Positions 1 through 38,967 of a stretch of 45,144 nucleotides of DNA are shown here, piece by piece. Numbering within the stretch: the first letter of the stretch is position 1; every line of letters starts with the position of its first letter. A program made the position numbers and the translations under genes. This DNA is from a virus (taxonomy: Duplodnaviria; Heunggongvirae; Uroviricota; Caudoviricetes), in the IMG/VR virus record IMGVR_UViG_2851976983_000003, one strand, 5' to 3'. The notes beneath the pieces are model-generated. The model was given only the letters and a program-made list of their open reading frames with translations. It made no database searches and was not told where the DNA came from.

Positions 1-267
1 TTACTCTGCAGGTGAAGTCGGCCACTCAATATCAGGTGCGGTTGATGTATCAACACGGTTCAGCAACACCCGATACTTCTTCCAGGCTTCCAGCAACGAG
101 TTTTCTTCCTCCGTTGCGATCTCCAGATCTACAGCATCCTGAAGTGGCGCAATATGCTCACTGAATTCCTGGATGTAGAACTGTGTGGTGACGGTCTTCC
201 AGCCATTCGGCTCCTGCTGTATCGAAGCATACCAGGCTATTTCAATATCGCTATGCTGCGGCAGCAT
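1..267 (-). CDS. Tail fibre assembly (Tfa)-like protein, C-terminal-domain fragment; lacks the conserved Tfa N-terminus
   Basis: C-terminal ~40 aa ([29 protein letters not shown]) align with the C-termini of the full-length Tfa copies at 2519-3049 and 3078-3611; the upstream part is replaced by AT-rich DNA. Confidence 0.5.
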
Positions 268-323
268 TTAACCCCTTGTAATTCATCGCCATAATTGATT
301 TAATTCATAAACAAAACTATAAC

Positions 324-992
324 ATGGTGAAATTAATGAAAAAAAACACACATGATGGGGCTAAAATTTACACACCACTTACCCTAAAGCTTTATGACTG
401 GTGGGTTTTGGGAGTATCAAATCGTCTTGCATGGGGATGTCCTACAAAGGAACACCTTCTTCCACACTTTCTGGAACATTTAGGTAACAACCATCTGGAT
501 ATTGGTGTTGGAACTGGTTTTTACCTCACTCACGTACCTGAGAGTAGTCTGATATCTTTAATGGATTTGAACGAAGCTAGCCTGAACGCGGCATCTACAA
601 GGGCTGGGGAATCAAAAATTAAACATAAAATTAGCCATGATGTTTTTGAACCTTATCCCGCGGCGTTACATGGTCAATTTGATTCCATTTCCATGTTTTA
701 CCTTCTTCACTGCCTGCCTGGAAATATATCTACAAAAAGCTGTGTAATACGCAATGCTGCGCAGGCCTTAACTGACGATGGAACTCTATACGGAGCCACA
801 ATTCTTGGCGATGGAGTTGTGCACAATAGCTTCGGTCAAAAACTGATGCGCATTTACAATCAGAAAGGCATCTTTTCAAACACAAAAGATTCCGAAGAAG
901 GCTTAACACATATACTCTCAGAGCATTTCGAGAATGTTAAAACCAAGGTTCAAGGTACTGTAGTAATGTTTTCCGCTTCAGGGAAAAAATAG
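324..992 (+). CDS. Class I SAM-dependent methyltransferase-like protein (moron, AT-rich)
   Basis: Motif I-like LDIGVGTGFY followed by an acidic beta-2 end (LMDLNEASL) and a downstream DVFEP...FDSISMFYLLHCLP segment; GC content visibly lower than the flanking phage genes. Confidence 0.5.
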   Translation: MVKLMKKNTHDGAKIYTPLTLKLYDWWVLGVSNRLAWGCPTKEHLLPHFLEHLGNNHLDIGVGTGFYLTHVPESSLISLMDLNEASLNAASTRAGESKIKHKISHDVFEPYPAALHGQFDSISMFYLLHCLPGNISTKSCVIRNAAQALTDDGTLYGATILGDGVVHNSFGQKLMRIYNQKGIFSNTKDSEEGLTHILSEHFENVKTKVQGTVVMFSASGKK

Positions 993-1067
993 CATCCAAC
1001 CGCAGCACGTTCTTGCTTAAGACGTGCTGCGGCATAATCCCAATGATTACTCCCTGACAGGGTTCGT

Positions 1068-1145
1068 AGGCCACTCAACATCAGGTGCAGTTGATGTATC
1101 AACACGGTTCAGCAACACCCGATACTTTTTCCAGGCTTCCACCAC
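1068..1145. repeat. Second copy of a ~78 bp direct repeat (first copy ~20-97) corresponding to a tfa 3' end
   Basis: Near-identical nucleotide strings ...ggccactcaa(t/c)atcaggtgc(g/a)gttgatgtatcaacacggttcagcaacacccgatactt... at both positions, bracketing the methyltransferase-like gene. Confidence 0.65.
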
Positions 1146-1178
1146 CAGCACGACAAGATGCCGCATACAGTGACCCAG

Positions 1179-1397
1179 TCAGTCCAGTTTCCAGACAACC
1201 AGTGCGTCACCTTTTTGAAGGCGCTTTAAAGCACGTTTTAATCCAGGTCGGCCTGTCCTTGTTCCGCTTAATTTATCTTCAAATATTTGTTCACATCCTG
1301 CACAAACAAGAGCGTTTCGTTGCAGGCCTGTATTCTGGTCATTTGTTGATACCCTTACATAGCCAATCAGCACGCTGAATCTCCCGTCCAAAAGCAC
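1179..1397 (-). pseudogene. pin: Pin/Gin/Hin-family serine DNA invertase, 5' fragment only (about 64 N-terminal codons, then fused to the tfa 3' remnant)
   Basis: Translation VLIGYVRVSTNDQNTGLQRNALVCAGCEQIFEDKLSGTRTGRPGLKRALKRLQKGDALVVWKLD matches the invertase N-terminus including the catalytic-serine region, then stops; the family is ~180-190 aa. Confidence 0.75.
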
Positions 1398-1427
1398 AAA
1401 TCATGCCATGCAGGCCAGAAACGGCCA

Positions 1428-1453
1428 TTATCTAAAACCTCGGTTTACAGGAA
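1428..1453. other. Inversion crossover site (gix/hix-like, 26 bp), outer boundary of the invertible tail-fibre segment
   Basis: ttatctaaaacctcggtttacaggaa is the reverse complement of a near-identical 26-mer at 4559-4584 (23/26 identical), and lies between the pin fragment and the alternative fibre segment. Confidence 0.65.
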
Positions 1454-1477
1454 ACGGTAAACAGGGCCAGGAACGCC

Positions 1478-2518
1478 GTGCAAAAAACTGGCGATACCTT
1501 GTCCGGTGGGCTTACTTTTGCAAACGACTCAATCCTTGCCTGGATTAGAAATACTGACTGGGCAAAGATTGGTTTTAAAAATGATGCTGACAGCGATACT
1601 GATTCATTCATGTGGTTTGAAACAGGCGACAACGGCAATGAATATTTCAAATGGAGAAGCCGCCAGGGCACCACAACAAAAGACCTGATGAATCTTAAAA
1701 GGGATGCTTTGTATGTTCTTGTTAAAGCCCTTTTCAGCAGTGAAGTAAAAATATCGACAGTCAATGCACTGAGGATTTTTAATTCATCCTTTGGTGCTAT
1801 TTTTCGCCGTTCTGAAGAAAGCCTGTATATCATCCCTACACGAGAAAATGAGGGTGAAAATGGAGATATTGGGCCATTAAGGCCATTCAGCATCGACTTA
1901 AGAACAGGAGTTGTGTCTGTTGGTAATGGTGCCAGGATTGATGGCGGGCTGGCACTTGGCACGAATAACGCGTTGGGTGGGAACTCAATTGTTCTTGGTG
2001 ATAATGATACCGGATTTAAACAGAATGGAGACGGTATTCTTGATGTTTATGCTAATAGTCAGCGTGTATTCCGCTTTCAGAATGGAGTGGCTATTGCTTT
2101 TAAAAATATTCAGGCTGGGGATGGTAAAAAATTTACGCTATCCAGCTCCAACAACTCCACGAAGAACGTAGGGTTTAATTTATGGGGGGCTTCATCAAGA
2201 CCAACTGTTGCAGAGCTTGGTGATGATTCAGGCTGGCATTTCTATAGTCAGCGAAATACAGATAACTCAGTAATATTTGCTGTTAACGGTCAGATACAGC
2301 CCAGCAACTGGGGGAATTTTGATTCCCGCTATGTGAAAGATGTTCGCCTGGGTACGCGTGTTGTTCAATTGATGGCGCGTGGTGGTCGTTATGAAAAAGC
2401 CGGACACGCAATTACCGGATTAAGAATCATTGGTGAAGTAGATGGCGATGATGAAGCCATCTTCAGACCAATACAAAAATACATCAATGGCACATGGTAT
2501 AACGTCGCACAGGTGTAA
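1478..2518 (+). CDS. Alternative side-tail-fibre C-terminal variable segment (Sv'-like); expressed only after inversion fuses it to the stf constant part
   Basis: The frame is open back through the crossover site (…ETVNRARNAVQKTGDTLSGG…) and matches the ETVN junction in the stf C-part; fibre-like Gly/Asn-rich sequence followed directly by a tfa gene. Confidence 0.7.
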   Translation: MQKTGDTLSGGLTFANDSILAWIRNTDWAKIGFKNDADSDTDSFMWFETGDNGNEYFKWRSRQGTTTKDLMNLKRDALYVLVKALFSSEVKISTVNALRIFNSSFGAIFRRSEESLYIIPTRENEGENGDIGPLRPFSIDLRTGVVSVGNGARIDGGLALGTNNALGGNSIVLGDNDTGFKQNGDGILDVYANSQRVFRFQNGVAIAFKNIQAGDGKKFTLSSSNNSTKNVGFNLWGASSRPTVAELGDDSGWHFYSQRNTDNSVIFAVNGQIQPSNWGNFDSRYVKDVRLGTRVVQLMARGGRYEKAGHAITGLRIIGEVDGDDEAIFRPIQKYINGTWYNVAQV

Positions 2519-3049
2519 ATGATGCAGCATTTAAAAAATATTAAGTCAGGAAGTCCAAAAACAAAAGAGCAATATCAGCTAACAAAGAATTTTGATGTTA
2601 TCTGGTTATGGTCCGAAGACGGAAAAAACTGGTATGAGGAAGTGAAGAACTTTCAGCCAGACACCATAAAGATTGTTTACGATGAAAATAATATTATTGT
2701 CGCTATCACCAGAGATGCTTCAACGCTTAATCCTGAAGGTTTTAGCGTTGTTGAGGTTCCTGATATTACCTCCAACCGACGTGCTGACGACTCAGGTAAA
2801 TGGATGTTTAAGGATGGTGCTGTGGTTAAACGGATTTATACGGCTGACGAACAGCAACAACAGGCCGAATCACAAAAGGCCGCGTTACTTTCCGAAGCAG
2901 AAAGCGTTATTCAGCCACTGGAACGCGCTGTCAGGCTGAATATGGCAACAGACGAGGAACGCACACGACTGGAAGCATGGGAACGCTACAGTGTTCTGGT
3001 CAGCCGTGTGGATACGGCAAATCCTGAATGGCCACAAAAGCCTGAATAA
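2519..3049 (+). CDS. tfa: Tail fibre assembly protein (Tfa', partner of the alternative fibre segment)
   Basis: 176 aa; [25 protein letters not shown]… typical Tfa N-terminus and C-terminal [14 protein letters not shown] motif; start overlaps the stop of the preceding gene. Confidence 0.85.
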
Positions 3050-14481: not shown

Positions 14482-17400
14482 CGTCCACCTCCGGAGAACA
14501 GACCACCATCACGGGACTGCTGTTGCATAAAGTCCGCTGCTGCTTTTTTCCCGAGGTCATAAACCACCTTCAGGGCAGCCGGACCTATCTGCCCGTTCGT
14601 GCCATCGTTATTGATCTCGATGTTGTACTGCGGGGCAAACATCGCCATACCTGAACCACCAATATCCGCCACAACCCCCAGCTTACCGTCAGCACCACGA
14701 CGCAGAGGCAGAATGGCTTCAGGCCCAGCTTCCCCCATCACACCTGCACCTTTTGCAAAAGCAAAAAACGTCGGACGGTTAACCACCGTGCCACTGTAGC
14801 GACTCAAATCAGCAGACTGATAAACACCACCATCAGCATTGGGCGTCACACTGGCAGTTGCTGCACTCCCCCAGCCAAACGCCGAACCAATCCCCTTAAC
14901 TGCCTGCATCATGGACATCTGGGCCATGATTTTTGCCAGATCAGAAAGGAGCGAGGCGGTAAAAGATTTGAAGTTCAGTTTTCCGGTAGTACAGAACGTT
15001 GCCAGTGCATTACCTGCACTGTTAAATGCCGCTGTAAGCATCTGCTCAGCAGTGCCTGCCGCATTATCCGCATCTGCCGTGAAATTCTGAAACGCCCGCA
15101 TAGCACCGTTTTTCCAGTTACCCTGAGCAATTTCAAGCTGTTGCCAGTAACGGCGATTCTCATTCAGTTGTCGGTTCAGGCTCTCCGTCAGCGCCTGCTC
15201 GGCCTTTCTGTAGTCATCCGTGTTATATGTCCCTTTCTGCTCACTATCCCGCCTCAACTGCTCCAGCTGTTGCTGGTATTTCTGGCGAAGACTCAGTTGT
15301 ACCTGATATCGCTGCCGCTGCTGATCACCCATACCCACCGTGGCGATATCCAGGTCATGTTGCTGACGCTGAGCGCGCTCTTCTTCAGCCAGTTGACTGG
15401 TCAGCTGAATTGTTTTTTTCTTCAGCTCGTTGAGTGCCGTCTGTTTCTGAAGCTCCTGCTGTTTTACATCCAGCAGCGTCAGTGCCTGAATCAGTTCATC
15501 TTTACGGGCCAGCACACTCTTTTCATCTGCCGTCAGTTTTTTCCCGTCCAGGTCGCTGATGCGCTGCTGCAGAGCCAGAAGCTGTTTATGCGCTTCTGTC
15601 ATCTTTTCAGTGGCAATGCCTGCTGACTGTCTTGCAGCAGCAATCTGCCCTTCCACCTGTGCCTGTTGCTGACTGTACTGCAGCAATAACCGGGTGGCCT
15701 CATCATTACGGGTTTCGCGTGTTTTTTTCTTACCGGATGCCAGGGCTTTCTCGTAACGTTCATTTTCACGTTGTATCGCCGCATCCCTGACAGCCTGGTC
15801 GGCGTACTGCATGGCATTAATACGCGCAATTTCACGCTGATGTCGTGCTGCTTCCGTTTCATTCATCCGGTTCAGTGCAGCATTTTCAGCATTACGTCGT
15901 TTCTGTTGCTCCTGATAATTCCGCTCTGCCTGCTCTTTTGCATCCTGCAAATCCTTCTGGCGTTTTTTCTCCTGAAGATCGTTAAGACGCTGCTGATCGT
16001 ATTCAACCTGAGAAGATGATGCCGTCCAGGGGAGTCTTTTCGCCCGCGACACTTTCTCCTGTAAAGCGGCAATCTGTTCATCCAGCGAGTCTTCACGACC
16101 AATATTCATGGCCGCATCCCAGAAACGACTCCACAAATCAGACAGATACTTCAGCGTACTGCCAAGCGCATTGAGGTTATTATCAATATCCGCAGTACGC
16201 CGACTGGTTTCCTCTGCCAGTGCAGACATGGCTATCCGTGCAGCATCACTGGACCGCCCCTGATCTCCAAGGACACGTATCTGCTCAAGCTGAGTGGCAG
16301 TAAGAAAATGCAGCTCATTGTCCAGAGCCTTCGCGGCATTTACAGGATCATCCTTCAGCCGCTTAAACTGATTTATGGTATCGCTGACCGACTGGCCAAC
16401 CGATCGCTCCATCTGTGCGGCAGCTCTCGCCACCATACCGATATCGTTTCCACGAAATGCACCACTCCCCACCACCTGAGCCAGCGCACCGGCTGCAGCA
16501 TGTTGCGTGATACCATTCCCGGAAATAGCACGACTGAGCGTCCACAGCTGCCCGGCAGTGACTCCGGCATAATGCCCCGTCAACGACAGCTGGCGGTTAA
16601 ATTCTTCCCCCTCCTTCTGACCGTCATACCAGGCTTTACCCAGACCATAGACGGCCGCGGTAATACCGCCAATAACCCCGCCCAGCATCATGCCTTTCGG
16701 TGACATCAGTGTGTCTATCCATCCGGCACGGTTAGCCAGCGTTATCCCGGATCCCCTCAGCGCCCCTAAATTGCCGCGGGCCAGTTCACCTATCAGAACG
16801 CCTATCTCCTGGCGGGCCGCTGCACTTTTCAGACCCAGCGAATGCGTGGCTTTTCCTGCCCGCTCCATTTTGCGGATATACACTTCTGCAGCACTGCTTA
16901 CCCCCAGCTGGGCTGCCTTGGCACGAAGCAACTCAGAAGATGAAAGATTCTGGCGGGTTGCCTGCTCTTTAAGCTGACGGATAAACGCCACTTTCTGTCG
17001 GGTAGCCTCTTCCTCAGCCTGTGTAAGAACACGGGTTTTCGCCGTAACCTCAGAAATCAGCGCCAGATAATCCTGCTGACCAATCCCGCCACTGTTTCTG
17101 GCCTGTCGGATCTGCTGCTGAATACGCTGTAATTCCTGCAGCCCCGCACTGGCCTGTTTCACACTGTCAATCTGACGATAAAACGCAGCAGCCGCTTTAT
17201 CCTGAGCCTCCGCCAGAGCCATGGTCTGCGCCTGTTCCTCGCGCATTTTCTGGCTCAGTGCCTCCATGCGCTGGCGGGTTTTCTCCACCTCGCGGGCCAT
17301 GCGTTCATGAGCCTGTGCGTTCTTCTCCACCGTCTGCGCATGGACGGATGCGGCTGTTGCAGCCGAAGAAGCCGCCTGCGTTGTCTGCCGGGCGGCCTGA

Positions 17401-20848: not shown

Positions 20849-21877
20849 TTATTTCACCTGAACCACCACAAACGCGTCCGGATCCGGCAACACCATCAAC
20901 GGCGCAGACTGCGTCATGGTATATTCGCACCCCGGGTCCCCCACCTCTAACCAGTGTTTCGGATAACGAATTGCAGAGGTAATCCCTTCACTCAGCGCCT
21001 GGTTATCCTGGATTGCGCCATAACAACGGACACCCTCCACCTGAGTGTTTCCAAGAATCAGTGTGCCTTCCGGCAGATAACGCTGCTCATCGCCGTTTTC
21101 ATCAACATACGTTGTTTTCGCCACCATGATGGCCAGATCACCGTAATAACCTTTAAAAGAAACCACGGACCCCAAATCTTTCAGCGCGGTTTCCAGTTCA
21201 GATTTTGAGCCACGGCGGGTATCCAGTTTTTCACGAAACAGTTTAAAACCGTTCAGCATACGCCAGACAGTACCGTCCATAATCGCAATATTGATGGTAC
21301 CGGAAGCGAAATCGCAGTACGCATCCAGATCATGCGTTGGATCAAAGGTGTCAGCATTCTGCTGTGACCATTCGCGTCCGCTAGCCTGCGTAATGTTATT
21401 GGCGGCAGAACGCCCAAAATCCACTTCCACCGTCTCAAACTGTTCACCGCTCATGGTGTACTTACCCTGCAGAACAGCGCTGACCGCCTGCATTTCTTCC
21501 ACCTGCACAATCGCCTGTTCTTCCTGTTTCAGGTTGTCAGTCAGAATACGCAGGCGACGGTAGGCCGGGTCATTAAGACGGGCCGGATCTTCCCCCGGAA
21601 GACGCTCCACCGCCTGCTGATAATCCAGCCGGTGTTTTGGTTTAACATAGCCGGGGCGTAACACGCGGGTTTCACCACCACGACTGCGCAGTACCTTACC
21701 TGACACAACCGGAGACACATATGCCGCAACCGGTGTTTTTCCGGTGATTTTATCCAGCATCACTTCCTGAGTATGGAAAGTGACCGTACGACGAAAAAAC
21801 AGCTCCAGAAACAGCGCACGGAATTTCACTTTCTGCTCGGTGTAGCCGAGCAACTGACGCGTGGTAAATAACCCCAT
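20849..21877 (-). CDS. E: Major capsid protein E
   Basis: Start placed at MGLFTTRQLL; strong colinearity with lambda gpE (EEMQAVSAVLQGKYTM…, KLDTRRGS.SELETA…). Confidence 0.9.
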   Translation of the reverse strand: MGLFTTRQLLGYTEQKVKFRALFLELFFRRTVTFHTQEVMLDKITGKTPVAAYVSPVVSGKVLRSRGGETRVLRPGYVKPKHRLDYQQAVERLPGEDPARLNDPAYRRLRILTDNLKQEEQAIVQVEEMQAVSAVLQGKYTMSGEQFETVEVDFGRSAANNITQASGREWSQQNADTFDPTHDLDAYCDFASGTINIAIMDGTVWRMLNGFKLFREKLDTRRGSKSELETALKDLGSVVSFKGYYGDLAIMVAKTTYVDENGDEQRYLPEGTLILGNTQVEGVRCYGAIQDNQALSEGITSAIRYPKHWLEVGDPGCEYTMTQSAPLMVLPDPDAFVVVQVK

Positions 21878-21945
21878 AATTGACTTTCCTTTAAAAACAC
21901 AAACGGGCCGCATCGCGACCCGTTTTTCAGTTAATCACTTCACCA

Positions 21946-22281
21946 TCAGGCGTGGCTGATGGCACTTCCCACAAATGCGTTGGCTTTTTTCACCGCATCC
22001 ACAGAGTCAGGCCAGACCAGCGACTCAGTGGCAAACGTACCGCTTTTGTAGTACGTCAGTGCGAGCTCGGTCCCGGCCAGCGCCAGTGCCAGCACCCCCA
22101 CAGCCGTTCCGGCTTTCTGACCATCCCATGCCACCAGTTTTCCGCTGGCGTCATCCAGCATCAGTGGCGTCAGTGAAGGCGTGGCAACACTGATACCACT
22201 GGTACCTGTTGCGGTATACACCGGATCGCTTCCGGCAAAAATGCGCCTGTCCGCGCGCTTTTCTGTGGTGGTTTTAATCAT
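21946..22281 (-). CDS. D: Head decoration protein D
   Basis: 111 aa, lambda gpD-like (TPLMLDDASGKLVAWDG…YYKSGTF). Confidence 0.9.
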   Translation of the reverse strand: MIKTTTEKRADRRIFAGSDPVYTATGTSGISVATPSLTPLMLDDASGKLVAWDGQKAGTAVGVLALALAGTELALTYYKSGTFATESLVWPDSVDAVKKANAFVGSAISHA

Positions 22282-22318
22282 TTTCAGTCTCCTGATTTAT
22301 CTGAATCACGGATAACGC

Positions 22319-29484: not shown

Positions 29485-29868
29485 TTAGCGCTTCAACTGA
29501 AAGTGAGGCCCGTCTTTCAGTGTTTTCCAGTCCCCGCCCCATTCGATGGCAGTTCCCAGCTCTGCGGCAGCCTGCTTAAATGCCTGCGCGATTTTCTCGT
29601 ACAGAGGCCAGTCCCATGACACCTGGCTACCAATGTAGGCCACAACATCCACCGCATCACCGGTCAGGTGGCGGCTGTTCATGGTCTGGCTTTTCCCTTC
29701 CGCGACCAGCTGCTTCTGGCGATACTTACTGCGCAGGCCTTCCGTAATACCGAAGTCAACCTCCGTCAGCTCCAGCGCACGGCGAACAACAGCAACCAGC
29801 TGTGGTTTGACGCCCTCCAGATTTTTCTCACTTCGACGACTGAATCTGAATTTACCGGGCATACTCAC
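29485..29868 (-). CDS. Endolysin, peptidase M15-type (L-alanyl-D-glutamate endopeptidase-like)
   Basis: 127 aa; SRHLTGDAVDV and GGDW…DGPHFQ zinc-binding motifs typical of M15 peptidases; sits in the lysis cassette. Confidence 0.8.
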   Translation of the reverse strand: MSMPGKFRFSRRSEKNLEGVKPQLVAVVRRALELTEVDFGITEGLRSKYRQKQLVAEGKSQTMNSRHLTGDAVDVVAYIGSQVSWDWPLYEKIAQAFKQAAAELGTAIEWGGDWKTLKDGPHFQLKR

Positions 29869-30140
29869 CTCCGTAATGAAAGGATTTTTGAAACGTTCCC
29901 GCGTGCACGTATCACCAGCACGCAGAACAGCAGATTAAGCCCCACCGCCAGCCAGTTCGCCGCTAACGGGCGACCGCACAGATAACTGAGTGGTGCAAAG
30001 GCATACAGCAGCATCAGCAGCCAGGCCAGCCATGACATCAGCGGCTTATGTCTGGAATCGCGACGACGATAAAAAAAGAGCGTCAGCACGATAACCGTGC
30101 ATAACGCCACATTCAGCAATCCGGGAAGGTTACTTAACAT
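29865..30140 (-). CDS. Putative lysis-cassette membrane protein (holin/antiholin-like, 2-3 TM segments)
   Basis: Start placed at MLSNLPGLLNVALCTVIVLTLFFY…; hydrophobic helices; between the holin-like gene and the endolysin. Confidence 0.45.
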   Translation of the reverse strand: MLSNLPGLLNVALCTVIVLTLFFYRRRDSRHKPLMSWLAWLLMLLYAFAPLSYLCGRPLAANWLAVGLNLLFCVLVIRARGNVSKILSLRR

Positions 30141-30522
30141 TGCCGCCACCTCCGCCCCGCAGGCGGGAGAACACACCGGACACCAGCGATGCAATATCCT
30201 GCTGGTGGATGAACGACAGAACCTTCACCGACACCACCGATACCAGCACCGCACACAGCGCATCTGCCGATGTACCGTCATACCCTGTTTTTGATGCAAT
30301 CCAGGCTGACAGCACACGCGCTCCCAGCACGCCGACAATAAACGACACCAGAAAATGCGCCACCACACGCCAGACTGAAAGCGCCTGCGGCATCGTTGCC
30401 ACAAATAACGCCCCGGCGAACGCACCAAACACAATCCCGAAATCCGTTCCGGTAAACAGCCCGTACACCGTCGCCCCACCGAGCGCCGCAGCCGTGCCGG
30501 AACCGGATAAGGGTTCAGACAT
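30130..30522 (-). CDS. Putative holin (multi-TM, Gly/Ala-rich)
   Basis: Start placed at MSEPLSGSGTAAALGG…; several hydrophobic segments; first gene of the lysis cassette. Confidence 0.5.
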   Translation of the reverse strand: MSEPLSGSGTAAALGGATVYGLFTGTDFGIVFGAFAGALFVATMPQALSVWRVVAHFLVSFIVGVLGARVLSAWIASKTGYDGTSADALCAVLVSVVSVKVLSFIHQQDIASLVSGVFSRLRGGGGGNVK

Positions 30523-30539
30523 ACGTTTTTCTCCTGTAA

Positions 30540-30565
30540 ATAAAAAAGGGCCGCCAGCGGCCCGT
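30540..30565 (-). terminator. Rho-independent terminator immediately upstream of the lysis cassette
   Basis: gggccgc-ca-gcggccc hairpin followed on the minus strand by TTTTTTATTT. Confidence 0.6.
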
Positions 30566-30689
30566 AAAAACACCCCGTCAAAGGCACCCGCAGATGCCTT
30601 TTGCGCGGCGTTATTTGATGTGATATGCGCCGGGTGTGGCGAGGATATGAAAAAGGCCCGCCGTAGCGAGCCATGAAAAAAAAATGAAT

Positions 30690-30718
30690 AAAAAAAACCG
30701 CCTGGTGCGGCGGTTAAG
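30690..30718 (-). terminator. Second rho-independent terminator between the tRNA array and the holin
   Basis: aaccgcc-tggtgc-ggcggtt hairpin followed on the minus strand by a long T run. Confidence 0.55.
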
Positions 30719-30990
30719 GATGTATTTCCAGGTTTTGCTTAGTACGCGATTAATCTCAACGTTATTCTGAGCGATGCTTACAACATCGGAATGATGCATC
30801 ACCGACCCTGCCAGGAAATACAAAATCTCCACCGATAATGCACCATTCTGCTGTCGTAAAAAAATCAGCACTGAGGCTACACCTGGCCTCAAATTATAGC
30901 CAGAGAACAGAATGCTTTTTCAAAACAACCTGCTCCCACGTAATAAAAAATACACCAGTGCCGCAATACAATAAGGCTTGTTGCAAATGC

Positions 30991-31065
<75 letters not shown>

Positions 31066-31068
31066 ATA

Positions 31069-31144
<76 letters not shown>

Positions 31145-31146
31145 AC

Positions 31147-31223
31147 TGGACCGCCACCGGGGACTCGAACCTCGCACACTCAACTTAAAGGGTTGACGCT
31201 CTTTCCTGATGAACTGGTGACAG
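31147..31223 (-). tRNA. tRNA-like gene, atypical (anticodon loop CCUUUAA, nominal anticodon UUU; possibly degenerate)
   Basis: 77-nt foldable cloverleaf with encoded CCA, but two G-U pairs in the acceptor stem, C at position 8, C at position 33 and an A-C mismatch in the T stem. Confidence 0.45.
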
Positions 31224-31224
31224 T

Positions 31225-31300
31225 TGGTGGCCCTTGCTGGATTTGAACCAGCGACCTGGCGATTATGAGTCGCTCGCTCTCACCACTGAGCTAAAGGGCC
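31225..31300 (-). tRNA. tRNA-Ile2/Met-type (anticodon CAU; ileZ/ileX-like)
   Basis: 76-nt cloverleaf, acceptor ggccctt/aagggcc, anticodon loop ctcataa, T-loop ttcaaat, CCA. Confidence 0.8.
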
Positions 31301-31349: not shown

Positions 31350-32399
31350 TCAAACGATTAAATCCTGAACTTCCCTGACTGTCTGTTCAAAACGTCCTGT
31401 CTCCAGCTCAACACCAATCGCACAACGCCCCAGTGCCATCGCCGCTTTTACCGTTGAACCTGAACCCATAAAAAAATCTGCAACCAGGTCTCCCGGACGA
31501 CTGCTCGCGTTGATTATCTGCTGCAGCATTTCTGCCGGTTTTTCGCACGGATGTTTCCCTGGATAGTACTGCACCGGTTTATGCGTCCAGACATCGGTGT
31601 ACGGAACCTGCGCCGTCACACCGAAATACCGCCGCAAATTTTTATATTCACTCAGCAATTCCGTATACTGCCGGTTCAGCTCACTGTATGTGCTGACCAG
31701 CTGGTGGTGTGGTTTTTCCAGTTCCCCGCGCTGATGTTTTTCTGCCGCAACACGCGCAAACAACGCCTGCAATTTGTTGTAATCACCCTCGTTCGGTAAC
31801 TGCCACTGACTGGTACCAAACCAGTGCGAAGCCATGTTTTTCTTTCCGGTGGCTTCCGCTATCTGTTTTGACGTTATTCCCAGTGATTTACGCGCATCAC
31901 GAAAGTAAGAAATCAGCGGGGCCATGACGTGCTGTTTTAGCTCGCGCCCCTGTGCCACATAGCCATCATCTTTCGGGCGATACGGTCCCTGATAATGTTC
32001 TGCAAACAGAATGCGCTCTGTTGCCGGAAAATACGCCCGCAGACTTTCCTTATTGCACCCGTTCCAGCGTCCGGACGGCTTCGCCCAGATAATGTGGTTC
32101 AGCACATTAAAGCGCTCACGCATCATGATTTCGGTGTCAGATGCCAGGCGATGACCACAGAACAGGTAAAGACTTCCGGCAGGCTTCAGTACCCGCCAGA
32201 ACTGCGCCAGACACTGGTCCAGCCATTTCAGGTAATCATCGTCGCCCTCCCACTGGTTATCCCAGCCCTCGGGCTTCACTTTAAAGTATGGCGGGTCTGT
32301 GACTATCAGATCGACAGAGTTTTCCGGTAAGGTCTGGATAAATTTCAGGCAATCAGCGTTGATTAACTCACAACTGGATATTTTTACAGTATTAGTCAT
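31350..32399 (-). CDS. Orphan DNA methyltransferase (N6-adenine/N4-cytosine, DPPY motif)
   Basis: 349 aa; IVTDPPYF catalytic motif near the N-terminus and FMGSGST SAM-binding motif near the C-terminus; no adjacent restriction endonuclease gene. Confidence 0.85.
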   Translation of the reverse strand: MTNTVKISSCELINADCLKFIQTLPENSVDLIVTDPPYFKVKPEGWDNQWEGDDDYLKWLDQCLAQFWRVLKPAGSLYLFCGHRLASDTEIMMRERFNVLNHIIWAKPSGRWNGCNKESLRAYFPATERILFAEHYQGPYRPKDDGYVAQGRELKQHVMAPLISYFRDARKSLGITSKQIAEATGKKNMASHWFGTSQWQLPNEGDYNKLQALFARVAAEKHQRGELEKPHHQLVSTYSELNRQYTELLSEYKNLRRYFGVTAQVPYTDVWTHKPVQYYPGKHPCEKPAEMLQQIINASSRPGDLVADFFMGSGSTVKAAMALGRCAIGVELETGRFEQTVREVQDLIV

Positions 32400-32549: not shown

Positions 32550-32747
32550 TCACTGCAGAAGGCGTCTGTAACAACCGAACTGATAATCTGCCAGACCCGC
32601 CATAACAAGCTGGGTCAGGATTAACTGGCAGCGTTCGCGTGAAAGGTAAGTATTCTGCGCAATTTCCCCGACGGTCGCCGGTTCGGTGACGCTTAATTCA
32701 TTAAACACCACTCTGGCGGTTTCGGTCATATCCTGCTGTTTTAGCAT
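32550..32747 (-). CDS. Hypothetical small protein (possible winged-helix/HTH)
   Basis: Start placed at MLKQQDMTETARVVFNELSV…; short ORF upstream of the methyltransferase; function unknown. Confidence 0.35.
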   Translation of the reverse strand: MLKQQDMTETARVVFNELSVTEPATVGEIAQNTYLSRERCQLILTQLVMAGLADYQFGCYRRLLQ

Positions 32748-32966
32748 GTCTTTTTCCCTTTTCTGGTTAACGTGACATACCAATAACTCTTGTCTAAAAA
32801 GCCAGCAAGCTGAAAGACCGGTATTCGCAACCACCAGCGCGTTTAACGTACTGCATCAATTTTCGAGCATAAAAAGACCGCCTGAGGGCAGCCTTTTTAC
32901 ATTAAAATTAAGTTTTCTTTAACTATGTTGTATGTGAAATTAGCATTCCCTACTGAGTTTATACAA

Positions 32967-33710
32967 CTAATCTGACGTCACACGCACCATTATACTTACT
33001 AAAGAAAAGTCATCATCAGGTCCGGCTCTCTCTATACGACGCAAAATGCCATTAGAAAACTTCTGACTATTACTCATCGTATTTGATGTAAATCTGGGGC
33101 GTTTTTCCCAAACGTTATGAACCCCATCAGACATGATACACAGATGATATACCCCGTTAATACTAGGTAAATCTTTCCATGTGATAAAATCACAGTCGTA
33201 TTCCATATCAACATTTGAGGCTATAGCCGTCGTTAAGATATTTTTGCCCGGTTTATCCTTCAAATCTCTGGGTTTAAAAATATTCTGATCAATTAGCATC
33301 TGATGCCTGGTATCGTCCTTCGTCAATTGGTATGCTTTCTTCTCTCCAATGCAATACAAACGACAATCACCAATATGACCAATAATAATTCCGCTATCAC
33401 AAACATAACAAAACGTAAGTGTAGTAGCAGCTTTATCGAACTCATCATTAACATCAGCTAACGACATAACCTTTCGCTTAACTTCATCAAATACATCCGG
33501 AACTGTGTCAAAAGATAAGCTTGTCAATGCTGAAAGTTCAGCAATTGCCATTGATGAAGCCTGACTGGCACCAGTGTATGAACCTACACCATCAGCTACG
33601 GCAAATAAGATGCCATCCCCTACAATTTTGGGAGGAAGCAATGAATCTTCGTTGACCCTACCTGGTTCTTTTGGATACGAGAATGATGAAGTCGCTATCA
33701 GCTGAATCAT
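32967..33710 (-). CDS. PP2C-family Ser/Thr protein phosphatase
   Basis: 247 aa; PP2C motifs AVADGVGS, GDCRLY, SDGV and a C-terminal acidic DDD cluster; start ATG overlaps the kinase stop (ATGA). Confidence 0.8.
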   Translation of the reverse strand: MIQLIATSSFSYPKEPGRVNEDSLLPPKIVGDGILFAVADGVGSYTGASQASSMAIAELSALTSLSFDTVPDVFDEVKRKVMSLADVNDEFDKAATTLTFCYVCDSGIIIGHIGDCRLYCIGEKKAYQLTKDDTRHQMLIDQNIFKPRDLKDKPGKNILTTAIASNVDMEYDCDFITWKDLPSINGVYHLCIMSDGVHNVWEKRPRFTSNTMSNSQKFSNGILRRIERAGPDDDFSLVSIMVRVTSD

Positions 33711-34471
33711 GACTCACTCCTTAAAAAAGAATGCACAAAATCAAACGCCACATCATCTATTGTCTGATATCTATCATCTTTATCCATCCTGGTACACTTC
33801 GCTATGATAGGCTTTATTTTTTTATCATCTAAATTTAAGTCCTCAATTAACCGCCCCACCGCATAAACATCAGTCTTAACTGAATACTCGGCATTATATA
33901 AAATCTCGGGAGCCATATATCTTGTACTTCCCATACGGGTACCGATCTCGGTCAATTTAGTGGTATCCCCTTCGGGATTTGTATCTTTTACCAGACCAAA
34001 ATCAGACACCTTGTATGTTCCGTCGCTAAATCGCAAGACATTAAATGGTTTTATATCTCTGTGTAAATAGCCTTTCGCATGGATGTGAGCTACACCATCT
34101 AATACCATTTTCACTATTGAAATTTTTTGATCTGTTGTAAGAAGGTTGTTCGTTATTTCGTGCTCAAGATCACATTCTGCTTTATCCATAATGAACCATG
34201 GATTCTCGGCAAACAAATCGCACAAATAAATAGGAACAATATTGCTATGTACGCAATGTGATTGATACACGACCTCCCTTTTAAAACGCCTTCTAAACTG
34301 CTCTATTTGCGCCAAAAGCTCTGGTTTTTCGGGGGCTAAAACCTTTCTAGCATAATCCCCACATTCACCCTTGTTGAGGTTGTAAACCTTAACGTGTTCA
34401 ACAAAGCCAAATGCACCCCTTCCAATCAACTGAATTCGTTTTATAAAGTAATTACCGTGCTGTTCTTCCAT
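33707..34471 (-). CDS. Hanks-type (eukaryotic-like) Ser/Thr protein kinase
   Basis: Complete catalytic motif set: G-loop GRGAFG, lysine in YARKV, HRDIKPFN catalytic loop, DFG, APE (YMAPE), DVYAVG. Start placed at MEEQHGNYF; the ORF track starts 25 codons upstream. AT-rich. Confidence 0.85.
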   Translation of the reverse strand: MEEQHGNYFIKRIQLIGRGAFGFVEHVKVYNLNKGECGDYARKVLAPEKPELLAQIEQFRRRFKREVVYQSHCVHSNIVPIYLCDLFAENPWFIMDKAECDLEHEITNNLLTTDQKISIVKMVLDGVAHIHAKGYLHRDIKPFNVLRFSDGTYKVSDFGLVKDTNPEGDTTKLTEIGTRMGSTRYMAPEILYNAEYSVKTDVYAVGRLIEDLNLDDKKIKPIIAKCTRMDKDDRYQTIDDVAFDFVHSFLRSES

Positions 34472-34544
34472 TAAGCTCACCGACCTAAATTGTAAGAATA
34501 TCCATATCTTACAACTACAGATAAAAAGGTCCACAGAGTTAAGC

Positions 34545-34569
34545 AAAAAACCCGCATTTAAGCGGGTTT
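34545..34569 (-). terminator. Rho-independent terminator just downstream of the Q-like gene (tR'-like candidate)
   Basis: Minus strand aaacccgc-ttaaat-gcgggttt followed by TTTTGCTT. Confidence 0.55.
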
Positions 34570-34615
34570 ACACACTATACGGCAAAATATCACATTTACA
34601 TAAAATGTATGCGAT

Positions 34616-35311
34616 TTAATTGACTTTTGCAATATCTCGTCGTGAAAAGGTCGCTTTTTGTTGCGATCTCATTTTCACGGTGCAAATCAAGGATTCTGTA
34701 TCGAGTTTCTTAAAAATGTCGCACATCTCACGCCAGTAGTTCGCATAATTATGGCTCCAGTTGTCAGGCTTAACTCCACACAGTCTGGCAAGTTCCTGTC
34801 GCTGGTAGACGTCACGCCCAGTAATCCTCCCCCTGACATCCTGCGCCGCCAGCCAGATTAATTTCTTCAGACGCTCAAGCGTTTTCCCTGTAATTTTTCT
34901 GGTGCCAAAATGCACCTGAAACTTATCCCACGCCCATTTCGCAATGACCACCTGATAATCCCAACTCGGATTTTCACTGTATACCCACAGCACCCACGCC
35001 TTCTGATGCTCTTCAAGAGACAGAACGGCGCGTCGCCATGATGATGTCGAAAACTCAACCGGACTGACCAGGGCAATTGATGAACCTTTCGCCAGCGATT
35101 GCTTTCCCGGGATTGGTGGATTATCCCGCGTTATCATTTTTCCAGTCACTTCATCGCGGTACCGGATTTTTTTACGCCTGTAACGCCCTGTATCGAACAT
35201 GGCATTCTCTTGCCAGGCTTCAAGCTGACCTTTTGTTGCCCCACTCAAATCAGCGGTGGCGATAATGAGCTGCTCACGCACAAACTGTAAATACTGGTTA
35301 TTCATGCGCAC
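34616..35311 (-). CDS. Putative late-gene antiterminator (Q-like), assigned mainly by position
   Basis: 231-aa basic protein immediately downstream of rusA and upstream of a terminator and the late region, the position Q occupies in lambdoid phages; no motif confidently recognised. Confidence 0.45.
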   Translation of the reverse strand: MRMNNQYLQFVREQLIIATADLSGATKGQLEAWQENAMFDTGRYRRKKIRYRDEVTGKMITRDNPPIPGKQSLAKGSSIALVSPVEFSTSSWRRAVLSLEEHQKAWVLWVYSENPSWDYQVVIAKWAWDKFQVHFGTRKITGKTLERLKKLIWLAAQDVRGRITGRDVYQRQELARLCGVKPDNWSHNYANYWREMCDIFKKLDTESLICTVKMRSQQKATFSRRDIAKVN

Positions 35312-37299: not shown

Positions 37300-37692
37300 C
37301 TACTGCCCTGTTTTAACGAAGTTTTTAAAGGAAACAACTGCCTGATAGGGGTTTGGTTGACAGCCAAACATATTATCGCAAAAAGGCTTGATGAAAATTC
37401 TTGAGGATCCATCTTCATTTGGCATTTTACTCACTTGATAAGCGAGGAATGGACTATTTGGAGAGGGATTATAAGTGGAAATTAGCGTGTCTGTCGCCGT
37501 TTGAATTTTCCATGAGGAATTATTAGCCAACCAGAATTGCGCTCGTTTCCAATAAAAGTCACATTGCTTTTCATCATTACATGTTAGTGGCTTCATTGCT
37601 TCTGCTTTCAACGCTGGATCGACCTTTGCTGCACACCCTCCCAACATTACTGTTGCAATCATTACACCTGCGACTAAAACAAGTTTCTTCAT
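37300..37692 (-). CDS. Putative lipoprotein (moron, AT-rich)
   Basis: 130 aa; signal peptide with lipobox MLGGC (MKKLVLVAGVMIATVMLGGCAAK); several Cys in the mature part. Confidence 0.6.
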   Translation of the reverse strand: MKKLVLVAGVMIATVMLGGCAAKVDPALKAEAMKPLTCNDEKQCDFYWKRAQFWLANNSSWKIQTATDTLISTYNPSPNSPFLAYQVSKMPNEDGSSRIFIKPFCDNMFGCQPNPYQAVVSFKNFVKTGQ

Positions 37693-37753: not shown

Positions 37754-38080
37754 ATGACTAAAAATACTCGTTTTTCCCCCGAAGTCCGTCAGCGGGCGAT
37801 TCGTATGGTTCTGGAAAGTCAGGATGAATATGACTCACAGTGGGCGGCAATTTGTTCCATTGCCCCAAAGATTGGCTGTACGCCGGAGACTCTGCGTGTC
37901 TGGGTTCGCCAGCATGAGCGGGATACCGGGGGCGGTGATGGTGGGCTCACCAGCGCTGAACGTCAGCGTCTGAAAGAGCTGGAACGTGAAAATCGTGAAC
38001 TGCGCCGCAGTAACGATATCCTTCGCCAGGCTTCCGCTTATTTTGCGAAGGCGGAGTTCGACCGCCTCTGGAAAAAATGA
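37754..38080 (+). CDS. IS3-family transposase OrfA (HTH/leucine zipper)
   Basis: 108 aa, [50 protein letters not shown]…. Confidence 0.9.
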
Positions 38081-38967
38081 TGCCACTGCTGGATAAGCTG
38101 CGTGAGCAGTACGGGGTCGGACCGGTATGCAGCGAACTGCATATTGCCCCGTCAACGTATTACCATTGTCAGCAACAGCGACATCATCCGGATAAACGCA
38201 GTGCCCGTGCGCAGCACGACGACTGGCTGAAGAGAGAGATACAGCGCGTATACGATGAAAATCATCAGGTGTACGGTGTGCGTAAAGTCTGGCGTCAGTT
38301 GTTACGGGAAGGAATCAGGGTGGCCAGATGTACAGTGGCACGTCTCATGGCGGTTATGGGACTTGCCGGTGTTCTCCGGGGTAAAAAGGTCCGTACGACC
38401 ATCAGCCGGAAAGCCGTTGCCGCAGGCGACCGCGTAAACCGTCAGTTCGTGGCAGAACGACCTGACCAGCTGTGGGTGGCTGATTTTACTTACGTCAGCA
38501 CATGGCAGGGCTTCGTCTATGTGGCGTTTATCATTGATGTGTTTGCCGGATACATCGTGGGGTGGCGGGTCTCATCGTCTATGGAAACGACATTCGTGCT
38601 GGATGCGCTGGAGCAGGCGTTGTGGGCCCGTCGTCCGTCTGGCACCATCCATCACAGCGATAAAGGCTCTCAGTATGTGTCACTGGCCTATACGGAGCGA
38701 CTAAAAGAAGCCGGATTACTGGCATCAACAGGGAGTACAGGCGACTCGTATGACAACGCGATGGCTGAGAGCATCAATGGTCTTTACAAAGCGGAGGTAA
38801 TACACCGTAAGAGCTGGAAAAACCGTGCAGAAGTGGAACTGGCCACACTAACGTGGGTGGACTGGTATAACAATCGACGATTGCTGGGAAGGCTGGGCCA
38901 TACTCCTCCGGCAGAAGCAGAAAAAGCTTATTATGCTTCCATCGGAAACGATGATCTGGCAGCCTGA
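38077..38967 (+). CDS. IS3-family transposase OrfB (DDE integrase core)
   Basis: 296 aa with DDE/rve-type core (…WVADFTYV…HHSDKGSQY…DNAMAES…); overlaps orfA. Confidence 0.9.

Follow-up and report, generated by a model that had tools for sequence, protein, structure and literature searches.

Organization of the locus

The DNA analysed here, a stretch of 45,144 nucleotides referred to below as the window, belongs to a lambdoid E. coli prophage in which two co-directional minus-strand open reading frames encode a Hanks-type Ser/Thr kinase and a PP2C phosphatase. The cassette that holds them follows the antiterminator gene Q and its candidate late promoter, and is followed in turn by a small ORF, a DNA methylase gene and tRNA genes. 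The features of the region are listed below.

34616..35311, minus strand: Q antiterminator gene (Pfam Phage_antiter_Q, 4.2e-84; RefSeq annotation in E24377A), which sets the upstream boundary
34604..34632, minus strand: candidate late promoter pR', TTGCAA-17 nt-TACATT, overlapping the 3' end of Q and read off the sequence
32899..34579, minus strand: inserted cassette of 1681 bp (BLASTN against the empty-site prophage L009; GC 0.38-0.40)
34545..34569, minus strand: intrinsic terminator at the 5' end of the cassette, AAACCCGC-TTAAAT-GCGGGTTT followed by T6 (terminator scan; MFE -15.1 kcal/mol)
34472..34544, minus strand: 73-nt leader with a GGTGAG ribosome-binding site and a putative weak promoter, TGGACC-16-TAAGAT (from the sequence)
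33707..34471, minus strand: Hanks-type Ser/Thr kinase, 254 aa (Pfam, conservation, AF2, PDB matches)
32967..33710, minus strand: PP2C (PPM) phosphatase, 247 aa (Pfam PP2C_2, conservation, AF2, PDB matches)
32871..32898, minus strand: second intrinsic terminator, directly past the cassette, which is the recipient phage's own tR' (MFE -18.3 kcal/mol; homologous hairpin in L009)
32550..32834, minus strand: small ORF (phrog_331), late-region context downstream of the cassette
31350..32399, minus strand: N6/N4 DNA methylase, late-region context downstream of the cassette
30991..31300, minus strand: three phage tRNA genes (ARAGORN, Rfam)
30130..30573, minus strand: first holin (Pfam Phage_holin_8), which with the tRNAs and a small ORF of the same segment closes the Q-to-lysis interval (30130..31300)

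The stop codon of the kinase gene (TGA, 33709..33707) overlaps the start codon of the phosphatase gene (ATG, 33710..33708) by 4 nt, forming ATGA, and a Shine-Dalgarno sequence, AGGAG, lies about 8 nt upstream of this ATG. The overlap confirms the proposal of an earlier note on this DNA that the two genes form one operon. The same note had placed the 5' end of the kinase at a TTG at 34546, which is wrong, as this position falls inside the T-run of the intrinsic terminator. The kinase instead starts with the ATG at 34471, since the residue M1 that it encodes does not vary among 116 homologues and the RefSeq kinase gene is 765 nt long. The cassette had also been assigned to the slot where Stx phages carry stx. 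This holds insofar as the Q-S (Q-to-holin) interval is shared, but the insertion points differ, with stx of 933W lying after the tRNA genes and the cassette directly after Q and pR'.

Insertion and expression signals

The GC content is 0.375-0.40 over 32800-34800, in comparison to about 0.49-0.53 on either flank. In the related prophage L009, which lacks the cassette, 26 bp take the place of the 1681 bp between Q/pR' and tR', and BLASTN homology between the window and L009 stops at 34580 and restarts at 32898. Together, the AT-rich composition and this empty-site comparison bear out the horizontal acquisition that had been proposed for the locus. The cassette was inserted as one unit into the late leader of the recipient prophage.

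The segment containing the candidate pR' is conserved in L009, and its placement with respect to Q matches that of the pR' annotated in 933W; its score of 8/12 is under the threshold of the promoter scan. Between pR' and the kinase sits the 5' terminator (34545..34569), shielding the cassette from pR'. This hairpin is kept with compensatory changes in another locus, L023, behind a different type of Q, an equivalent hairpin is found in phiES15, and the late leader of 933W is alike in that pR' is immediately followed by a terminator. A consensus scan of the window detected no promoter site at threshold in the 73-nt leader, and the TGGACC-16-TAAGAT candidate, conserved between two close alleles, was given no weight. 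Across the family, upstream promoter-like sites are not enriched (11/36 against 7.7 expected, not significant). No known RNA elements were found in the leader, the Rfam matches being the three tRNAs only.

Downstream of the pair, an intrinsic terminator of its own lies within 200 nt in 25 of 37 non-redundant loci, in comparison to 65 of 527 other genes (12%; p = 2e-13). The upstream non-coding region of the family loci is long, with a median of 160 nt, and is compatible with a promoter. The downstream terminator and the long upstream gap constitute the classic layout of a moron, which is sensible only if transcripts that are not Q-modified cross the cassette. In the window, the recipient's tR' serves as the terminator downstream of the cassette. 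Given also that the flanking genes are neighbours in a related phage (L009) and that the base composition deviates (GC 0.38-0.40 against about 0.50), the locus is best explained as a mobile two-gene accessory cassette, or moron, of temperate phages.

The kinase and the phosphatase

All of the kinase motifs named in the earlier note (GRGAFG, ARK, HRDIKPFN, DFG and APE) are present, and the profile search returned Pfam Pkinase (PF00069) at 2.8e-33, with 115.9 bits against a cut-off of 31.7. On proper alignment the catalytic residues are kept, being invariant or nearly so across 116 homologues. Thus, G17, G19, K43, E66, H137, R138, D139, K141, N144, D157, F158, G159 and D201 are invariant, as is G22 of the Gly-rich loop, and P188, E189 and R234 are nearly invariant (at least 90% conserved). 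The alignments used for residue conservation in the two proteins hold 116-120 sequences at 40-60% identity. The enzyme is of the RD kinase type, and the 254-aa protein is wholly kinase domain. A lysine in the catalytic loop of a kinase goes with Ser/Thr rather than Tyr specificity. The structure predicted by AF2 (pLDDT 89.6) has a bilobal kinase fold, for which the best PDB matches are the PknB kinases of S. aureus and M. tuberculosis (Foldseek 4eqm/3oro, E ~1e-14, TM ~0.72). In this model the C-lobe is compact and without helix alphaG, having just two helices after alphaF, and there is a gap of ~30-35 residues in the C-lobe relative to Stk1 and 933W Stk. The activation loop is disordered and Thr-bearing in the model, and T174 is conserved. 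Between two E. coli alleles, dN/dS of the kinase is 0.037 (~0.04). From its complete catalytic set, the kinase is apparently active.

The PP2C signature described for the downstream gene (ADGVGS, GDCRLY, SDGV) is likewise present, and the profile search matched PP2C_2 (PF13672) at 2.1e-14, with 54 bits against a cut-off of 24; a match to PF00481 is under its cut-off (17.7 vs 20.3). Across 120 sequences, D22, D40, G41, D115, R117, D195, G196 and D233 are invariant, and the metal-binding aspartates of motifs I, II, VIII and XI are all kept together with the GDxR motif. An invariant Tyr45 stands where the usual GMGGH has His. The AF2 model (pLDDT 88.9) shows the PP2C beta-sandwich fold, and the best PDB matches are Stp1, PstP and tPphA (E 1e-13 to 1e-16, TM 0.72-0.79). 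For the phosphatase, dN/dS between two E. coli alleles is 0.12. Both genes are intact, catalytically complete and under purifying selection. Both enzymes are compact, with no sensor or DNA-binding domain in either according to Pfam and the AF2 models.

Distribution and decay of the family

The arrangement of kinase followed by phosphatase, mostly with a 4-nt overlap, is found in 86 of 87 related loci from Gammaproteobacteria, and the two genes co-occur on the same contigs across this group, in hosts from Vibrio to Xanthomonas. One locus, L086, with multiple kinase fragments and a 367-aa phosphatase, was excluded, as its tandemly repeated segments most likely represent an assembly artefact. In the PHROG 5650 profile, 565 positions long, the phosphatase occupies 273-520, a hint of fused kinase-phosphatase calls; none of the 87 loci shows a fusion.

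The family occupies a range of slots, including those after Q (7), after lysozyme/Rz (6/4) and adjoining cI/cro/YdaS (about 5), as well as others before TerS/TerL, near int or in chromosomal islands. This variety of slots for the same cassette points to an autonomous function that is untied to one phage pathway. Of 38 non-redundant viral loci, at least 13 have the pair within the late operon, where it follows Q or separates the lysis genes from terminase. Among 5426 complete E. coli genomes, only 50 contain the cassette, which is frequent in human ETEC isolates, and just two of 50,697 sequenced phage records (phiES15 and Flotzy, both of which look temperate) carry the pair. Individual copies lie beside a NACHT/STAND protein and SymE (Xanthomonas), at the end of a P2-like prophage beside a Panacea-domain gene (P. 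syringae) and in an IS/integrase island (P. putida).

Three independent lesions inactivate the kinase and leave the phosphatase intact, namely a 10-bp deletion (E. coli 510016), a 1-bp indel and a nonsense codon, and no loss of the phosphatase alone was seen. The excess of disrupted kinases is small, at 3-4 events of which some are possibly sequencing errors, and the pattern fits a costly kinase with an indispensable antidote. Overall, the pair is a conserved, mobile family that is already annotated in RefSeq and in phiES15 and Flotzy. No functional study of it was found, and the literature, including that on PD-T4-6, PP2C/prophage kinases, phiES15, E24377A and DefensePredictor and a preprint on embedded defences, yielded nothing beyond KKP.

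Comparison with known systems

The genes gp21/gp22 of phiES15 (Cronobacter) and CDS0008/0009 of Flotzy (Escherichia) are true family members, with kinase identities of 39-45%, phosphatase identities of 41-42% and the 4-nt overlap. In phiES15, too, Q with a hairpin behind it precedes the pair and the lysis genes come after, whereas in Flotzy the pair has a spanin gene upstream and the gene for the small terminase subunit downstream.

Among characterised systems, the nearest is the KKP module of three genes (PfkA, PfkB and PfpC) of Pf6 and of P2-, P4- and Mu-like prophages (Guo et al., 2024; PMC11341870). The KKP kinases are toxic and are neutralised by the PP2C, which is inhibited by a lytic-phage protein (PMC11341870). 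The module provides both defence and lysogeny control, with Pf lysogeny controlled through phosphorylation of the nucleoid protein MvaU (PMC11341870). In both cases, prophages of many Gram-negative temperate phages carry a Hanks kinase, or kinases, and a PF13672 PP2C in one operon. However, KKP has three genes, ordered phosphatase-kinase-kinase, whereas the pair has a single kinase, which precedes the phosphatase, and is flanked by Q and a small ORF. The KKP kinases, of which the PfkA type carries a fused cold-shock domain (CSD) and the PfkB type a fused FHA domain, are 300-430 aa in length, and both extra domains are required for toxicity (PMC11341870). The proteins of the pair, in contrast, are ~250 aa each and consist of the catalytic domain only, with no CSD or FHA match in Pfam. 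The hosts differ as well, with KKP carried by P2, P4, Mu and Pf phages and the pair mostly by lambdoid late or immunity regions.

Stk, the kinase of the Stx2 phage 933W, reportedly excludes HK97. As a Hanks kinase of a lambdoid prophage, it resembles the kinase described here and offers a precedent for kinase-based exclusion. Unlike the latter, Stk is 348 aa in length, with a full C-lobe, HFD rather than HRD and no partner phosphatase, and its gene lies in the cI (pM) operon between cI and tM rather than in the late region. Close kinship was rejected, given 26% identity over 210 aa (the catalytic core only), the non-RD nature of Stk and its other locus, and 933W is absent from the tblastn matches at 1e-5 among sequenced phage records. 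The kinase is no more than a generic relative of Stk, and the exclusion precedent is one of analogy, not homology of function.

Among PADLOC models, the kinase matches PD-T4-6 (1.5e-34), Stk2 (5.7e-28) and Mad6 of MADS (3.4e-40). Within these much longer models, only the kinase portion is matched (as in 10-201 of 327 positions or 40-243 of 659), and the NCBIfam model antiphage_MADS6 (Mad6) gives 66.7 bits where its cut-off is 460. Membership of PD-T4-6, Stk2, Mad6, PglW or MkoA was rejected, as the matches are to the kinase domain only and no better than that to Pfam Pkinase. In addition, PD-T4-6, Stk2 and Mad6 have no PP2C partner, unlike the pair. For the phosphatase, PADLOC gave no meaningful match.

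The nearest solved structures belong to the housekeeping pairs PknB/PstP of Mycobacterium and Stk1/Stp1 of Staphylococcus. PknB and Stk1 are RD kinases regulated by activation-loop threonines, with an adjacent PP2C that dephosphorylates them. These kinases have a transmembrane segment, PASTA sensor domains and a complete C-lobe, whereas the kinase of the pair is without alphaG. Furthermore, the housekeeping pairs are found in core chromosomal operons with the phosphatase first, rather than the kinase, and the NCBIfam equivalog scores for them are far under the cut-offs (104 vs 450; 93.5 vs 230).

Proposed function

By analogy with KKP, the architecture and context of the pair make a role in defence, abortive infection or host reprogramming plausible. 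The likeliest reading, at about even odds, is that the pair acts as a self-restrained, KKP-like switch of a kinase and an antidote phosphatase, serving defence or prophage control. In such a switch, a Hanks kinase of the RD type, minimal and soluble, would be opposed by a PP2C that is translationally coupled to it. The kinase would activate itself by phosphorylating its activation loop (T174), and the phosphatase made alongside it would steadily strip this mark and the phosphates of substrates, so that the pair idles. The balance may shift if the phosphatase is blocked, or the kinase activated, by a protein of a foreign phage, or else upon host expression shut-off or Q-driven over-expression during induction. 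Should the kinase win, it would phosphorylate host or phage proteins, and growth or phage development would be arrested. The kinase would thus be toxin-like and its antidote enzymatic, and the pair would act to exclude superinfecting phages, abort infection or control prophage induction, as experiments have shown for KKP.

This reading is favoured by catalytic completeness, selection, strict pairing, insertion as a unit, varied slots and an own terminator, and also by the PknB-like and PstP/Stp1-like folds, occasional conflict-type contexts, kinase-only lesions and the KKP precedent. Against it stand the strong terminator between pR' and the kinase, the lack of a leader promoter at threshold and of promoter enrichment across the family, the generic PADLOC matches of the kinase and the absence of the CSD and FHA domains required for toxicity in KKP. 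No known defence genes were found beside the pair in the 38 viral loci, where the neighbours are ordinary phage genes and PADLOC returned methyltransferase-type models and a few weak candidate-family matches.

A more tentative possibility is that the pair represents a distinct, unnamed anti-phage system for abortive infection or exclusion, spread by temperate phages in Gammaproteobacteria. The alphaG-less RD kinase would be its effector, and the PP2C would be both antidote and infection sensor, inhibited or out-competed during infection. The pair may then be ancestral or sister to KKP, with two genes only and working without the CSD and FHA adaptors.

It is rather unlikely that the cassette is a module of late-phase host takeover, silent in the lysogen and transcribed only from pR' under Q antitermination as the first late genes. 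In that case, the kinase, like the early kinase of T7, would phosphorylate host proteins to the benefit of virion production or the timing of lysis, and the phosphatase would limit collateral damage or reverse host kinase signalling. The position in the window, downstream of Q and a tR'-type terminator with no own promoter detected, agrees with such a role, as do the viral loci (at least 13 of 38) within the late operon and the same layout of pR' and then a terminator in the 933W late leader. However, the same cassette is also found by cI/cro, by early recombination genes near int, at the end of a P2-like prophage and in chromosomal islands without late genes, and the downstream terminator of its own (25/37) would be pointless for a Q-modified polymerase. 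The scarcity of the pair among sequenced phage records (2 of 50,697, both apparently temperate) also argues against takeover.

Less probable still is a module for lysogenic conversion or prophage regulation without defence, which would tune the phosphorylation of a host regulator, such as a nucleoid protein, and thereby set the induction rate or alter the physiology of an ETEC-type host. The control of Pf lysogeny by KKP through MvaU phosphorylation (PMC11341870) provides a model for this, and the cassette is AT-rich, as is H-NS-silenced DNA, frequent in human ETEC isolates and, for some family members, located in the immunity region. Yet a host range from Vibrio to Xanthomonas is difficult to reconcile with a host-specific regulator, and the enzymes are compact, without a sensor or DNA-binding domain. 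Finally, it is barely credible that the pair is a selfish or decaying passenger without function, or a mis-called pair of ORFs, for although some copies have a broken kinase and 50 of 5426 complete E. coli genomes carry it, this is contradicted by the dN/dS values of 0.04 and 0.12, the invariant catalytic residues in 116-120 homologues of 40-60% identity, the confident structure models and the strictly conserved operon structure.

Significance

Few systems of phosphorylation-based immunity or prophage control have been characterised in bacteria, namely 933W Stk, Stk2, PD-T4-6 and KKP. As a switch of kinase and antidote phosphatase, the pair would be the simplest of them, built from a single kinase domain and a single PP2C, both bare. 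This two-enzyme make-up would offer a tractable model of infection sensing by balance, of the decisive host or phage targets and of toxicity without adaptor domains. Defence-finder models in current use recognise the kinase in a generic way and could wrongly assign it to PD-T4-6. Since the pair heads the late operon in ETEC prophages, it would be induced together with genes for lysis, and with those for toxins in the case of related phages, and it may therefore influence induction or phage-phage competition in pathogens.

Prophage context and identity of the two genes

At the level of sequence, the kinase and phosphatase genes constitute an autonomous, horizontally mobile operon of a predicted active kinase and a predicted active phosphatase. 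They lie in a complete lambdoid prophage that is read on the minus strand, with these features in gene order:

Minus strand, first in gene order: replication genes, with an IS3-family insertion among them
38077..38967, plus strand: IS3 orfB (rve)
37754..38080, plus strand: IS3 orfA (HTH_Tnp_1)
Minus strand, after the replication genes: DUF968/HNH, RusA and Q (34616..35311)
34545..34569, minus strand: the cassette's own hairpin terminator, at its 5' end (-15.1 kcal/mol)
33707..34471, minus strand: kinase gene, directly after Q
32967..33710, minus strand: phosphatase gene
32871..32898, minus strand: native tR' hairpin, just 3' of the phosphatase (-18.3 kcal/mol)
Minus strand, after the pair: small ORF, N6/N4 DNA methylase, three tRNAs
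30991..31300, minus strand: tRNAs CAT (Met/Ile2-type), Thr-TGT and Gly-TCC
Minus strand, after the tRNAs: two holins, M15 endolysin, Nu1/terminase, head and tail genes
30130..30573, minus strand: Phage_holin_8, lysis cassette
29865..30194, minus strand: Phage_holin_3_7, lysis cassette
29485..29868, minus strand: M15 peptidase endolysin, lysis cassette

The upstream gene of the pair encodes a protein kinase (Pfam Pkinase, 2.8e-33) and the downstream gene a PP2C phosphatase (PP2C_2, 2.1e-14) in the domain search that the earlier note had proposed; all of the motifs quoted there are found, and additional domains were detected in neither protein. The kinase stop and phosphatase start overlap (ATGA) as described, with an AGGAG ribosome-binding site just 5' of the overlap, and the reported AT-richness is borne out by a GC of 0.38-0.40 over the pair versus ~0.50 on both flanks. 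The kinase start had been misplaced at TTG 34546, which falls within the T-run of the terminator; the true start is the ATG at 34471, used by RefSeq (765-nt gene) and matching the invariant Met of 116 homologues. With this correction, the original observation is confirmed.

Alignment, which the earlier note had named as a place where catalytic residues might prove lost, shows them intact. Across 116 homologues of the kinase, which share 43-77% identity with the query, invariant positions comprise the glycine loop (G17, G19, F21, G22), the ATP-anchoring Lys43, Glu66, the catalytic loop His137-Arg138-Asp139-x-Lys141-x-x-Asn144, Asp157-Phe158-Gly159 and Asp201, while Pro188, Glu189 and Arg234 reach 90% conservation or more. 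Among 120 phosphatases, the metal-binding aspartates D22, D40, D195 and D233, Gly41, Gly196, Asp115-x-Arg117 and also Tyr45, at the GMGGH His position of most PP2Cs, are invariant. Structure prediction, likewise proposed, gave confident AlphaFold2 models (pLDDT 89.6 for the kinase, 88.9 for the phosphatase), whose best solved matches are bacterial PknB/Stk1 and Stp1/PstP/tPphA, respectively. Between a pair of diverged E. coli alleles (95.7% DNA identity), dN/dS is 0.037 in the kinase gene and 0.12 in the phosphatase gene. Together, the invariant residues, confident models and low dN/dS show that both genes are functional and under purifying selection. Besides Tyr45 of the phosphatase, two traits of the kinase mark the family. 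The kinase is of the RD type, with a nearly invariant Thr174 in a disordered activation loop (162-180). Its C-lobe is shortened to two helices after alphaF, with a gap of roughly 30-35 residues where Stk1 and Stk of the Stx2 phage 933W have the alphaG region.

Insertion site and regulatory anatomy

Of 5426 complete E. coli genomes, 50 carry the cassette, including many from human ETEC such as E24377A, and it is absent from many related prophages. In all E. coli matches listed, Q lies directly upstream, and PGAP labels the genes kinase and PP2C. An empty site in the FDAARGOS_1283 prophage, where homology to the window extends across Q up to 34580 and restarts at 32898 with 26 bp in place of 1681 bp, bears out the horizontal acquisition proposed from base composition. 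The conserved segment after Q (TTGCAA-17-TACATT) is a candidate late promoter pR' that overlaps the Q stop, as does the annotated pR' of 933W, and in the empty site it is immediately followed by a hairpin and T-run, the same hairpin as the native tR' of the window. The window thus runs from Q/pR' through the cassette terminator, a 73-nt leader, the kinase and the phosphatase to the native tR' and the remaining late operon. Owing to the insertion, pR' is now followed by two successive intrinsic terminators, the cassette's own and the ancestral tR', and Q-modified polymerase has to pass each of them. In locus L023, where Q/pR' is of a different, phiES15-like type, a 94%-identical cassette comes with this same 5' hairpin and leader, indicating that the hairpin belongs to the cassette.

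In a second E. coli arrangement, ML35, the cassette is joined to a truncated methylase, followed by Ile-Arg-Arg tRNAs and the Stx-type-phage gene nanS-p. The earlier note equated the position with the slot of stx; the interval is right, but the insertion point differs, stx in 933W being located after the tRNAs. ML35-type and 933W phages have Ile-Arg-Arg tRNAs at the place of the CAT/Thr-TGT/Gly-TCC set, suggesting that the tRNA cassette is itself exchangeable. In the lysis cassette (29485..30573), the two holin-family genes differ from each other and precede the endolysin.

The IS3-family element (37754..38967, plus strand) lies in the early/nin region on the strand opposite to the phage genes, and may have inactivated part of the prophage. 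Adjoining it, an AT-rich ORF (37300..37692, minus strand; GC 0.39-0.42) with a lipoprotein-type signal (MKKLVLVAGVMIATVMLGGCAAK...) had no match in a Pfam search and is a candidate for another accessory (moron) gene. The early region of the E24377A prophage version (L001) encodes hokD, a RelB/RelE pair and YdaS/YdaT-type genes (16272..16427; 21819..22290), and several toxin-type modules thus reside on one element.

Distribution and genomic slots

Homologues of both proteins co-occur across Gammaproteobacteria, including Cronobacter, Raoultella, Yersinia, Hafnia, Providencia, Proteus, Xenorhabdus/Photorhabdus, Serratia, Pasteurellaceae, Aeromonas, Vibrio/Photobacterium, Pseudomonas, Acinetobacter and Xanthomonas. 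When 1.84 billion representative proteins were searched with a profile, the result was a well-separated core of ~20 clusters (50% identity, >220 bits), below which lies a continuum of generic small PP2Cs. Among sequenced phage records, the pair is found in only 2 of 50,697. The kinase and phosphatase are always inherited together, occupy several accessory slots of temperate phages and are usually insulated by their own terminator. In 87 loci (80 from IMG/VR), the phosphatase is immediately 3' of the kinase in 86, the single exception ending at a contig edge, and most have the 4-nt overlap. In 25 of 37 loci, a canonical intrinsic terminator lies no more than 200 nt beyond the phosphatase stop, compared with 65 of 527 other genes of the same loci (Fisher p = 2e-13). 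The upstream non-coding region is long (median 160 nt); promoter-like sites there (11 of 36, 7.7 expected) are not significantly enriched. In two loci (L084 8496..9671; L085 8502..10037), a large ORF of 391 and 511 aa, respectively, starts at or overlaps the phosphatase stop and may represent a third component of certain variants.

Three genes per side were compared with Pfam for 38 kinase clusters (85% identity). Upstream neighbours, with the number of loci in brackets, are Q-type antiterminators (7), lysozyme (6), Rz (4), CI/Peptidase_S24 (4-5), YdaS/YdaT (4/2) and Cro (3); downstream are small terminase (4), large terminase (at least 5), holin (3), lysozyme (3) and integrase (2). Except for methyltransferases, no known defence genes were found among immediate neighbours. 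Individual slots include:

Yersinia and phiES15: antiterminator, cassette, holin
Flotzy and Enterobacter: spanin, cassette, terminase
Haemophilus: early recT/ssb genes, cassette, int
P. syringae: P2-like prophage end, adjoining a Panacea-domain gene
Xanthomonas: adjoining a NACHT/STAND protein and SymE
P. putida: IS/integrase island

The main competing explanation, a purely late, Q-dependent host-takeover function, matches the terminator-shielded position in the window, yet it does not fit the immunity-region, early-region and island contexts of the family or the downstream terminators, and is considered unlikely.

Relation to known systems and proposed role

As a general concept, prophage kinase-phosphatase modules have been known since 2022-2024, and domain-level annotation of the locus already exists; for this compact two-gene family, the searchable literature gives neither a name nor an experimental characterisation. 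The phiES15 gp21/22 and Flotzy CDS0008/0009 genes, annotated but unstudied, belong to it. The defining traits of the kinase-kinase-phosphatase module KKP (PfkA, PfkB, PfpC) are a phosphatase-kinase-kinase gene order and kinases fused to CSD and FHA, with toxicity depending on both (PMC11341870). The present pair would work in a similar way but is not a member: its single kinase lies upstream of the PP2C, and both are bare. PADLOC models for PD-T4-6, Mad6 and Stk2 match the kinase (33707..34471) at E 1e-28 to 1e-40; identity with these systems was rejected, as the matches cover only part of each model and score no higher than generic Pkinase, and NCBIfam equivalogs all score far under cut-off. 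Since only the generic kinase core is covered, automated defence annotation may mislabel the gene. Close kinship with 933W Stk was also rejected (26% identity, HFD rather than HRD), and that kinase sits in the cI operon without a phosphatase. A regulatory or lysogenic-conversion role without defence, which sequence data do not separate from a kinase/antidote reading and which KKP combines with defence, is rated a little lower still than late host takeover.

Three independent lesions affect the kinase, and none the phosphatase alone: a 10-bp deletion leaving a 187-aa truncated kinase beside an identical phosphatase (E. coli 510016, NZ_CP025851.1, a complete genome, and locus L025), a 1-bp indel (L024) and, in a genome with two copies, a nonsense codon in one of them (L055). 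This is what a toxin/antidote pair predicts, a small hint with numbers too small for significance. Separately, locus L086 (IMGVR_UViG_2548876519_000008, 1..2534) contains tandem-repeated kinase and phosphatase fragments, including a 367-aa 'phosphatase' whose N-terminal half is duplicated; most likely they reflect an assembly artefact and no real fusion.

RD kinases require activation-loop phosphorylation, and PstP dephosphorylates PknB, as Stp1 does Stk1. By analogy, the phosphatase would keep a self-activating kinase in check; once the balance was disturbed, the kinase would phosphorylate host or phage proteins. The interpretation in the earlier note is partly supported, the self-regulated defence or host-reprogramming module envisaged there being a plausible role by analogy with KKP. 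Given kinase biology and the precedent of KKP (PMC11341870), the pair may well be a phosphatase-restrained kinase that, when the balance is upset, would stop growth or phage development.
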